The position numbers are program-made. Below, piece after piece: positions 24,001 through 27,000 of a stretch of DNA of 64,000 bases. Numbering within the stretch: position 1 is the first letter of the stretch; each line of letters starts with the position of its first letter. The stretch comes from an uncultured Methylomirabilota bacterium (GTDB lineage: Bacteria; Methylomirabilota; Methylomirabilia; Methylomirabilales; 2-02-FULL-66-22), in assembly GCA_963705305.1 (NCBI GenBank), contig OY970067.1, forward strand, positions 2,688,001 to 2,752,000, in the 5' to 3' direction.

Positions 24001-27000
24001 CGTGCCGCTGGAGGGGCGCCAGGGGGTCCGGCGGGGTTCGACCCGCAACGAGCGCTGGCTTCGCATCATCCAGGAAGCGGCGGAGCAGTGCGGACGAAGC
24101 GATGTGCCGGACCTGAGGGCGCCCACCACCCTGTCCGGCTTTCTGGCGTCGGGCGACTGGGAGGCGCCGCTGCTGGTCTGCCACCCGGCCCGGGACGCGC
24201 AGCCCCTGCTCCTCGCCTGCGAGGATTTCCGCGGCGCTCCGGGCCTGACCCTGGTGCTCGGCGGCGAAGGGGGCCTGAGCCCGGACGAAGTGGAAGAGCT
24301 TGAACGAGCCGGGGCGCGCCTGGTGTCGCTCGGCCCGCGTCGCCTGCGGGCCGAGACGGCGACAGTTGCCGCCCTGGCCGTCCTCCAGGCCAGCCTGGGC
24401 GACTGGGGGACGGGCCCGAGCGAGTCATGGACAGAAGGTGCCGATCTCCCGGAGCGGCGCCCCTGAGTTGGCGCTGATGCCGAACCCCAGCATCCTGATC
24501 GTCGATGATGAGGAAGGCCTCCAGAGTTCGCTGGCCACGGCGTTCGCCGCCGAGGGCTATCGAGCCGAGGGGGCCGGATCGGCCGGGCAGGCCCTGGCGT
24601 GCCTCCAGCGGGCGCCCTTCGACGTGCTGCTCACCGACCTCGTGATGCCGGGAGCGGACGGCCTGGTCCTGATGGAGCAGGTGCGGGCCCTCTACCCGGA
24701 CACGGTGATCATCCTCATGACCGGGGGGGCCACGGTGGAGTCGGCCGTGCGTGCCCTGAAAGGGGGGGCCTACGACTACGTCCTCAAGCCCTTCACCCTG
24801 GTCGAGATTTTCCACGTGGTGGGGCAGGGGCTGGAGCAGCGGCGGCTGCGGCAGGAAAATCTCCAGCTGAGCGAGATCAATCGCCGCCTGCAGGAGATCG
24901 ACGAAGTCAAATCCAATTTGCTCTCGGCCGTCACCCATGAGTTCTGGACGCCGCTGACCATCATGCACGGGTGGCTGGATCTGCTCTTGGGGAACCATTT
25001 CGGGATTCTCTCCAGCGAGCAGCGGGAGAGCCTGACCACCGTGCGGAAAAGCGCGATCCGGCTGGGACGCTTGATCTCCAACCTGCTGGCGCTGGTGGAG
25101 TCGGAGCGCGGCCAGGGCCTGCGCAGGCTGTCCTTGATCGACCTGGCGGAGGTCCTGCGGGAGATCGCCGGAGAACTGCAGCCCGATTTGGCCGAGCGGG
25201 GCGTGCCGATCACACTGGCCCTGGATTCGGCGCCTGCCTTGATCCAGGCGGATGGGGATCGGCTTCGGCTGCTCTTTTTCAACCTGGTCGAGAATGCGAT
25301 CAAGTTCAGCGAGGCGGGTGCGGAGGTCCAGGTGGGGATCACCCGGGAGGCGGAAACGCTGGAGGTCGCCATCACCAACACCCGCGGCGACATCCCCGTG
25401 GAACGGATTCCCAGGCTGCTGCAGCCCTTCACACAGGGGGACATGAGCCTGAGCCGAGCGGTGGGCGGGTTGGGCCTCGGCCTGGCGGTGGTGCGCGCCG
25501 TCACGGATGCCCACCATGGCCGGCTGGCCGTCGAGTCCGGCGAGGGGCGGGGCACCACGATTCGGGTGCGCCTCCCGACGGCGCCCCCGGATATCCCGCG
25601 CGGGAGGGACCTGCCGTGATCCCGGCCCCGCCGCGGCAGCGGGATGTGGTCCTGGTGGACGGCTCGGCCTCCCTGTACCGAGCGTTCTTCGCGCTGCCGC
25701 CGCTCAGCAATGCCTACGGGACGCCCACCAACGCCGTGCTGGGATTCACCACCATGCTGCTGAAGCTCCTCCGCGAGGAGGAGCCGGAAGCGGTGGGCGT
25801 GGCCTTCGACGGCCCGGGGCCCACGAGGAGACACCTCGACTTCCCGGCCTACAAGGCCCAGCGCCCCGACATGCCGGATCGCCTGGTCCAGCAGATTCCG
25901 TACGTGCGCCGACTGCTGGAGGCCATGCGCATTCCGGTGCTCATGATTCCCGGGGAGGAGGCGGACGACATCCTGGGAACCGTGGCCGTGCAGGCCGCCG
26001 CCGCCGGGCGCCGGGTGCTCCTGGTCACGGGGGACAAGGATCTCCTCCAGCTCGTGGGTGACCGGATCCTGGTCCGGGATACGGTGAAGCCCAACGTCTC
26101 GGGGCCAGCCGAGGTGGCGGAGCGCTACGGGGTGTCGCCGGAGCGCTTGCCGGACTACCTGGCCCTCACCGGGGACAGCAGCGACAACATCCCGGGGGTC
26201 CCCGGAATCGGCGAGCGCACCGCCCGGGAGCTGCTGCAGCACTACGGGACCCTGGAGGGGATCCTGGCCGAAGCCCCGGGGGTGCGCAAGCCGCGGCTTC
26301 GGGAGACGCTGCTGGGTCATGCGTCCCAGGCCCGCGCCAGCCTCCGGCTGACCACCATCCGGACGGATCTCCAGGTGCCCTGGTCCGTGGAGGATCTGTG
26401 CCGTCACGAGCCGGATCTGGGCGCTCTGCTGGCCCTGTTCCGCGAGCTGGGGTTCAGCCGGTTGGAGCAGCAGTTCGCGCAGCCGTCGCTCGGCGGCTCC
26501 CCGTCGAGGCTCCCGGACTGACCGGCTCCCGCGGGGTGAAAGGAGCGGATGATCGTCGTCGGCCTGACGGGAGGAGTGGCAACCGGCAAATCCACCGTGG
26601 CTGCCATGTTCGAGGCGCGCGGGGCCGCCGTCGTGGACGCCGACCGGATCGCCCGGGGGCTGCAAGAGCCGGGTCAGCCGTGTTACCGGCAGATCGTCGA
26701 GACCTTCGGGCGGGAAGTCGTCGGCGCCGACGGGCGGCTGGACCGGCGGCGTCTGGCCCGCCTGGTCTTCGATGACGCGGAGTCGCGGCGCCGGCTGGAG
26801 GCCATCATGCATCCGGCCATCTGGGACGGGTGCCAGGCCGGGATCCGGGCGGCCGAGGCGGCGGGCCGGCCGCTCTGCGTGGTGGACGCCGCGCTGATCC
26901 TGGAGGCGGGCTGGCAGCATCGGTTCCAGGCGGTCATCGTGGTGACGGCGCCCGAGGCGATGCAGGTGGACCGGCAGGTGCGGATGCGGAGCCTGACCCA

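Follow-up and report, generated by a model that had tools for sequence, protein, structure and literature searches.

The Exonuclease Gene and Its Surroundings

The window, by which we mean the whole stretch of 64,000 nucleotides analyzed here from the genome of an uncultured Methylomirabilota bacterium, contains a gene for a lone 5'-3' (flap) exonuclease that corresponds to the N-terminal third of polA and lies between a receiver/histidine-kinase gene and coaE (Table 1). Translation and a domain scan bear out a preliminary description of the locus, according to which only a 301-residue exonuclease is left at the polA-coaE site. The alignment shows the nine acidic residues of the active site to be complete, and identity to the N-terminal domain in a relative's full Pol I is 53%. 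With regard to membership in the Pol I family, the exonuclease domain with its acidic active site is present and the family A polymerase domain is absent from both the chain and the genome; the NCBIfam Pol I model scores 316 bits, as compared with a cut-off of 720 bits. A separate nuclease of the Xni/ExoIX type was ruled out, the score being 154 bits (cut-off 261) versus the 316 bits for Pol I, and the gene sitting in the polA slot.

In what follows, f1-f5 are the five Methylomirabilales families in which polA is truncated, f1 including this genome, and the higher numbers are other families of the class. Full Pol I of ~875-895 residues occupies the corresponding slot in f6, f7, and f8, and because coaE is found behind full polA in these three families and in the two f9 loci where this can be seen, coaE marks the ancestral polA slot. 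A scan for promoters gave 2 candidate sites versus 1.1 expected, too small a difference to be informative.

Table 1. Positions of the genes and features discussed (window numbering unless contig C1 is named)
Feature	Position	Strand	Remarks
Receiver/histidine-kinase gene	24300..25619	+	Stop overlaps exonuclease start; same upstream neighbor in f3, f4, f6, f8
Lone 5'-3' (flap) exonuclease	25616..26521	+	301 aa plus stop; PF02739 and PF01367 only
C-terminal Q-P-S-L of the exonuclease	26480..26491	+	Putative; partial match to β-clamp-binding motif
coaE (dephospho-CoA kinase)	26549..27190	+	Begins 27 bp after exonuclease stop
rho-like gene	27411..28736	+	Named from sequence; conserved downstream marker of polA slot
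G3 family B polymerase (g05275)	C1:5571276-5573654 (outside window)	-	792 aa as called; motifs intact

Loss of the Klenow Part in Five Families

A profile search for PF00476 found no match in the whole genome, and a tblastn search of the whole contig, for which the Klenow part from the complete Pol I of a relative served as query, gave nothing better than E 0.34, which upholds the earlier claim that a family A polymerase is lacking. Contig C1 comprises 5,645,311 bases with no N and 66% GC (98.9% complete, 6.5% contamination); no terminal overlap was found, and closure is therefore not demonstrated. The PF00476 counts given previously were reproduced (0/20 in the genus, 2/44 in f1-f5, 21/21 in f6-f7, and 177/185 in the rest of the class). 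The two matches within f1-f5 (f2 and f4) are phage-type family A polymerases fused to UDG (L095, G023:C26; L096, G040:C282), of which L095 has a cysteine-rich insert.

The exonuclease gene was detected in 42 of the 44 f1-f5 genomes. Every one of the 39 loci read through to the gene end, this genome counted (18 of the 19 f1 loci read, 13 from f2, 1 from f3, 6 from f4, and 1 from f5), has a stop at 289-307 residues, and the truncation is thus common to the five families, as had been proposed. Directly behind the stop lies coaE in 31 loci (f1, f2, f3, and f5), one of which (G016) is split by a frameshift, and the active-site residues are kept in 36/36 aligned short exonucleases, one alignment gap aside. 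The Klenow part may have been lost once or more than once within the order. In the RpoB tree f7 lies beside f1 and f3, and a single f1-f5 clade is rejected (p-AU 0.0038); with an alignment of the exonuclease, coaE, and rho such a clade is not rejected (p 0.37), and the base of the Pol I tree is without resolution.

The Family B Polymerase

The family B polymerase of this genome, whose true start is probably 30-47 codons downstream of the called one, has N-terminal, proofreading, and polymerase domains (model pLDDT 90). Its proofreading (3'-5' exonuclease) and polymerase motifs are intact, and the alignments thereby confirm what had been said of the motifs in both this protein and the exonuclease. 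Motif C is preceded by a glutamate (EADTDG, E559) that is found in 31 of 32 f1-f5 rows, and a conserved glutamate in motif C is a feature of G3 (PMC7544198; published sources are cited here and below from their accessible parts). The named distant relatives include proteins of Chlorobi, Ignavibacteria, and Rhodothermales, which are 40-46% identical, Chlorobi being the phylum given for G3, which is reported in all of its members (PMC12926913). In its three domains, its glutamate, and these identities the protein thus resembles the G3 group, in which we file it on the strength of the motif and the named relatives rather than of a G3 profile; the published supplement rows consulted for the placement bear the label "PolBmain" only. 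An identity as Pol II (G1) was rejected (98 bits versus a cut-off of 570), and PolB2 (G2), with its inactivated proofreading and altered motif C, is ruled out by the intact motifs of both kinds.

Other polymerases in the genome are an intact-looking PolX, which is also present in 4/4 relatives tested, Pol IV, one DnaE, and a second PolB (C1:5485636-5487489; L003/L316), which is PolB2-like with an altered motif C and has neighbors without a Pfam match. The dnaA gene at C1:3.48 Mb (L315) has no evident dnaN after it and is distant from the turning points of the cumulative GC skew (~1.8 and 4.1 Mb).

Distribution of Pol I and G3 PolB in the Class

The survey covered 250 other genomes of the class, nearly all of them fragmented assemblies; it should be noted that the genomes are kin and that the counts stand for few events. 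The tallies include the unpublished genomes G033, G043, G075, G216, G217, G262, G380, G467, and G492, and no conclusion rests solely on these. In f1-f5 (n = 44) Pol I matches number 2 and G3 matches 39, the latter reproducing the earlier count and comparing with 38.5 expected from completeness if G3 were universal; the five genomes without a G3 match are 68-96% complete. All 23 genomes of f6-f8 have Pol I, with a single weak G3 match, and all 21 of f10 have Pol I, again with one weak G3 match. In f9 (n = 159) Pol I is found in 152 genomes, G3 in 149 (2 weak), and both in 143. The families with one genome each have Pol I only (f11), G3 only (f12), or both (f13).

The preliminary description had stated that G3 is absent from the PolA-bearing relatives, with 0 of 21 in f6-f7. 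This holds in essence for f6-f7, where there is one weak match (E 8e-28) among the 21, but not at the level of the class, where f9 commonly has both enzymes. In a FastTree phylogeny with weak inner supports, from which one frameshifted row was left out, the PolBs of f1, f2, f4, f5, f9, f12, and f13 cluster, with one Nitrospinota sequence among them. Because G3 and Pol I occur together in f9 and f13 and the PolBs group in this way, the ancestor of the class would have had both, and the pattern is most simply explained by reciprocal loss from an ancestral coexistence, not by import of G3.

Some details of this distribution may be added. The f12 genome (G249) was rejected as a further Klenow loss, its exonuclease also being absent and its completeness 73%. 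Four f9 genomes of two genera (G179, G180, G183, and G185; 75-93% complete) have G3 and no PF00476 match, a possible further loss. Retention of G3 where Pol I had lost proofreading was considered and rejected, since the 3'-5' site of Pol I is dead both in families without G3 (f7, f8, f10, f11) and in families with it (f9, f13), and is active in G3-carrying genomes of Chlorobi type. Among the class members examined, f6 (G047) is the only exception to the dead proofreading site of Pol I.

A polB Gene in the polA Slot of f4

The f4 set consists of six genomes of one genus, G043 among them as unpublished data. The gene order is exonuclease-polB-coaE-rho, coaE being seen in the 5/6 genomes whose contig continues, and in 6/6 the GTG start of polB overlaps the TGA stop of the exonuclease by four bases (GTGA). 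The adjacency of the two genes, noted previously for G040, G041, and G042, is therefore a feature of all six. The arrangement shows a polB relocated into the vacated polA slot and, as predicted from the overlap, translationally coupled to the nuclease. Among the non-f4 loci examined, the two genes were not found together.

Klenow-less Lineages Outside the Class

Of 54 G3 carriers outside the class, 50 were tested for PF00476, and 41 of these gave some match; six carriers of Binatia type (G252-G257) had no real Pol I match. In an even sample of the class Binatia, PF00476 is present in 235/251 genomes, and the 14 newly found negatives comprise nine with a stop-terminated exonuclease of 292-303 residues, three with no exonuclease match, and two that are ambiguous. 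These nine, together with G254, G255, and G257 (short exonuclease, no real PF00476 match), form a set of 12 Klenow-less Binatia, 10 of which have G3, as against 59 of 234 that bear Pol I; for the nine found without PolB as bait the count is seven. A PolB match was not found in G350 and G460, both with a short exonuclease. The short exonucleases of Binatia form a clade of their own, apart from those of f1-f5 and in another gene context, and Binatia are therefore counted as an independent case. In G342, of whose 4.5 Mb a single contig holds 4.46, G3 is present and a PolX match absent; its lone nuclease gene (G342:C1:18000-21000; L318) is divergent from dnaA and ahead of an M20 peptidase gene. 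Inside the Klenow-less clade, G449, G480, and G516 (L249-L251, L253) have a distant full Pol I that was apparently re-acquired, and G516 also retains the short gene.

Five Pol I-bearing Binatia (G421, G535, G358, G382, and G429; L269-L273) carry a G3 that has lost the motif C aspartate and the motif B tyrosine and has retained the ExoI DxE. They make up 5/21 Binatia rows from Pol I-bearing genomes and form one clade, representing one event, on a long branch that is sister to the Klenow-less Binatia clade. The polymerase catalytic residues are intact in 73/73 G3 rows from Klenow-less genomes and in 27/27 f9 rows.

A third lineage was sampled with 151 genomes (completeness filter 90%) from the class of G291, a member of Chthoniobacteraceae and hence of Verrucomicrobiia. 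PF00476 is matched in 54, in 49 at the strength of Pol I; the five weaker matches (G558, G637, G653, G673, and G674) were set aside. About two-thirds of the sampled genomes thus have no Pol I polymerase, and Verrucomicrobia are described as often lacking Pol I (PMC12926913). A sensitive G3 profile and a single G3 protein identified the same 35 genomes, 35/35 of them without Pol I, and 0/49 Pol I genomes have G3. Neither enzyme is present in 67/151, including genomes of 2.8-4.7 Mb, and G3 is therefore not necessary for loss of the Klenow part. All 11 Pol I-less genomes that were checked (6 with G3 and 5 without) have a stop-terminated nuclease of 298-342 residues, and PF00136 gave no match in the five that lack G3.

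Clamp-binding Motifs at the Protein Tails

The clamp consensus QxxLF was taken from PMC12926913 and searched with our own regular expressions, strict or loose (Qxx[LMF]). The motif is present in the PolB tail in 25/28 rows from f9, f12, and f13, 14/15 of Binataceae type, 2/2 from f5, and 12/29 from Verrucomicrobiia. It is absent in 14/14 f1 rows, this protein included, and in 12/12 from f2 and 5/5 from f4, as well as in 11/11 rows from Klenow-less Binatia and the 5/5 polymerase-dead rows; G256, whose tail has QDLF, was left out of the Binatia tally for a frameshift. The proteins of f1, f2, and f4 (0/31) differ in this respect from the published G3 group, for which the motif is given (PMC12926913). 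Its presence in the f9, f12, and f13 orthologues leads us to read its absence in f1 as a secondary loss. The lack of the motif was rejected as a sign of Klenow loss in general, since it is true of f1, f2, f4, and the Binatia clade and fails for f5 and 12/29 Verrucomicrobiia.

The nuclease tails match the strict pattern in 9/11 Verrucomicrobiia (QGELF type), f3, and f5, and the loose one in the 17/17 f1 proteins scored, 6/6 from f4, and 6/13 from f2; none of 16 Binatia short exonuclease tails has a clamp motif. The linkers of full Pol I match the loose pattern in 16/42 cases and the strict one in 1/42. The strict motif at the end of the lone nucleases of Verrucomicrobiia is comparable to the PIP box of FEN1. 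The pattern at the tails is suggestive, and because PolBs without the motif stand beside lone nucleases that mostly have a clamp-like tail, one may speculate that the nuclease is the clamp-tethered partner.

Discussion

Several bacterial groups with genomes of ordinary size retain just the predicted primer-removing nuclease half of Pol I. On balance we consider it probable, from the comparisons of sequences and gene arrangements, that in these Klenow-less lineages a G3 PolB performs the DNA synthesis of Pol I alongside the lone nuclease. Judging from the distribution and the tree, the ancestor of the class would have had full Pol I and a G3 PolB, with functions overlapping enough for lineages to drop one or the other: polA was cut back to the 5'-3' nuclease and G3 retained in f1-f5, Pol I was retained and G3 lost in f6-f8, f10, and f11, and both are still present in f9 and f13. 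In the Klenow-less lineages the nuclease would take off RNA primers as well as 5' flaps, and gap filling and nick translation in the maturation of Okazaki fragments and in excision repair would fall to the proofreading G3 PolB, much as archaeal PolB acts with FEN1; in f4 polB has shifted into the emptied slot and is coupled to the nuclease. The start/stop overlap in f4 (6/6), retention like that of a core gene in f1-f5 (39/44), the enrichment in Klenow-less Binatia (10/12), the exclusion in Verrucomicrobiia (0/49), and the fact that G3 polymerase sites have decayed solely where Pol I is present, in one clade, all support such a stand-in role. Against it are the presence in this genome of PolX, Pol IV, DnaE, and a PolB2-like PolB, the retention of both enzymes by Chlorobi-type bacteria and f9, the restriction of the polB adjacency to one genus, and the mixed picture at the protein tails. 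The distribution of the two enzymes is complementary in f1-f8 and Verrucomicrobiia, and Klenow-less Binatia are enriched in G3; f9, however, has kept the two together, and 67/151 Verrucomicrobiia show neither. Since 143/159 f9 genomes and the majority of the carriers outside the class (41/50) have G3 beside Pol I, it appears to have a role of its own.

In the main alternative the Klenow part is dispensable, DnaE fills gaps by strand displacement together with PolX or Pol IV, and G3, a repair polymerase inherited from the ancestor, has been retained for a separate task. DnaE and FEN repair Okazaki fragments without Pol I in Bacillus subtilis (PMC13082043), 109 of 3070 complete genomes have a solo exonuclease only (PMC12926913, Table S1), and DnaE, PolX, and Pol IV are encoded here. 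Retention of G3 is equally good in f9, where Pol I is present, and those Klenow-less Verrucomicrobiia (2.8-4.7 Mb) in which no PolB was matched, with the 67/151 that have neither enzyme, fit this alternative. However, it leaves unexplained why polB should lie in the polA slot with overlapping start and stop, why G3 should be gone from f6-f8, whose 23 genomes all bear Pol I, why the two enzymes should never coincide in Verrucomicrobiia (0/49), and why the polymerase site of G3 should decay only beside Pol I. We therefore regard it as possible, although the less probable account of the data.

A second alternative, that the Klenow-less families acquired G3 as a replacement, for example from Binatia, we consider unlikely. 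The absence of G3 from f6-f8, f10, and f11 (weak matches aside), the 62-64% identity of the G3s of Klenow-less Binatia, and the position of one Nitrospinota and one Binatia sequence at or in the PolB clade of the class, which indicates that transfers happen, would agree with it. It is contradicted by the occurrence of G3 in 149/159 f9 genomes and in f12 and f13, by the clustering of these PolBs with those of f1, f2, f4, and f5 (FastTree, weak inner supports), and by the f2 PolB tail, which matches the f9 tail as far as the lost clamp motif. An artifact or recent breakage, in which assembly gaps or a newly formed pseudogene would account for the missing Klenow part, might be suspected from the fragmented state of nearly all relatives and the lack of demonstrated closure of contig C1, but is refuted, to our minds practically beyond doubt, by an exonuclease-stop/coaE junction common to several families (31 loci), the lack of a Klenow remnant in the genome, and the retained active-site residues of all 36 short exonucleases, one gap aside. 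The non-orthologous replacement proposed in the preliminary description thus gains support as regards the stand-in role, from the f4 coupling, the core-gene retention, the two further lineages, and the decay only beside Pol I, but the G3 PolB would have been ancestral, not acquired.

G3 is the second-largest group of bacterial PolBs and a bacterial relative of Pol ε, to which, to our knowledge, no function has been assigned. About 96% of bacteria have Pol I, and the losses known are mainly those of small, AT-rich genomes. The G3 group, an EpsilonN-like clade, was defined without a function (Kazlauskas 2020, PMC7544198; Timinskas 2026, PMC12926913), and the accessible parts of these two papers contain no link between G3 and Pol I loss. 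The solo-exonuclease bacteria described (Tenericutes and Verrucomicrobia, among the 109/3070 genomes of PMC12926913, Table S1) likewise lack the Pol I polymerase and retain a FEN-like nuclease, but average 1.48 Mb and 33.7% GC, in contrast to 5.6 Mb and 66% GC here, where moreover the nuclease is what remains of polA at its original site and a candidate polymerase to replace the lost part is present. In crAss-like phages, PolA and PolB are switched, often in situ (PMC7886860); this is also a non-orthologous swap of a family A for a family B polymerase, but it involves the replicase of one-polymerase phages, whereas the present case concerns a cellular accessory polymerase and only the Klenow part, by way of coexistence. 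A family B polymerase and a separate flap endonuclease mature Okazaki fragments in Thermococcales (PMC13136892; PMC4432273), whose PolBs are the closest solved folds to the G3 PolB model (TM about 0.70-0.73 for the top matches). The two systems share this division of labor between proteins, but differ in that the nuclease here derives from Pol I, the clamp is β and not PCNA, and G3 is ~21% identical, which makes the likeness an analogy only. In the literature searched, outside which most subscription papers lie, no report was found of a cellular Pol I replaced by a G3 PolB, and exchange of A for B polymerases was found for phages only.

The stand-in role of G3 PolB would give this group a first concrete and cheaply testable job and, if true, would mean that cells, too, have exchanged a family A for a family B polymerase. 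The two-gene pair of f4 is a natural construct for such work, and Verrucomicrobia, which show the same exclusion, include cultured members; those Verrucomicrobiia that have neither a Klenow part nor a PolB raise a second question, namely which polymerase fills the gaps there. More tentatively, bacteria may several times have rebuilt a lagging-strand pair like that of archaea and eukaryotes, made up of a Pol I-derived flap nuclease, in many cases with a newly gained clamp-binding tail like that of FEN1, and a Pol ε-related G3 PolB as gap filler, which in one family would amount to a Pol I split over two translationally coupled genes at the polA site; the G3 group would then have gap filling of the Pol I kind as its general function.

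The polymerase-dead proteins of Binatia are possibly stand-alone proofreading nucleases, as their retained ExoI motif suggests. The ExoI DxE is lost in 11/29 G3s of Verrucomicrobiia, and a dead or partly deleted proofreading domain is seen in G3s of Klenow-less genomes at L028 (G014), L296-L298, L303, L309-L312, L246, and L247.
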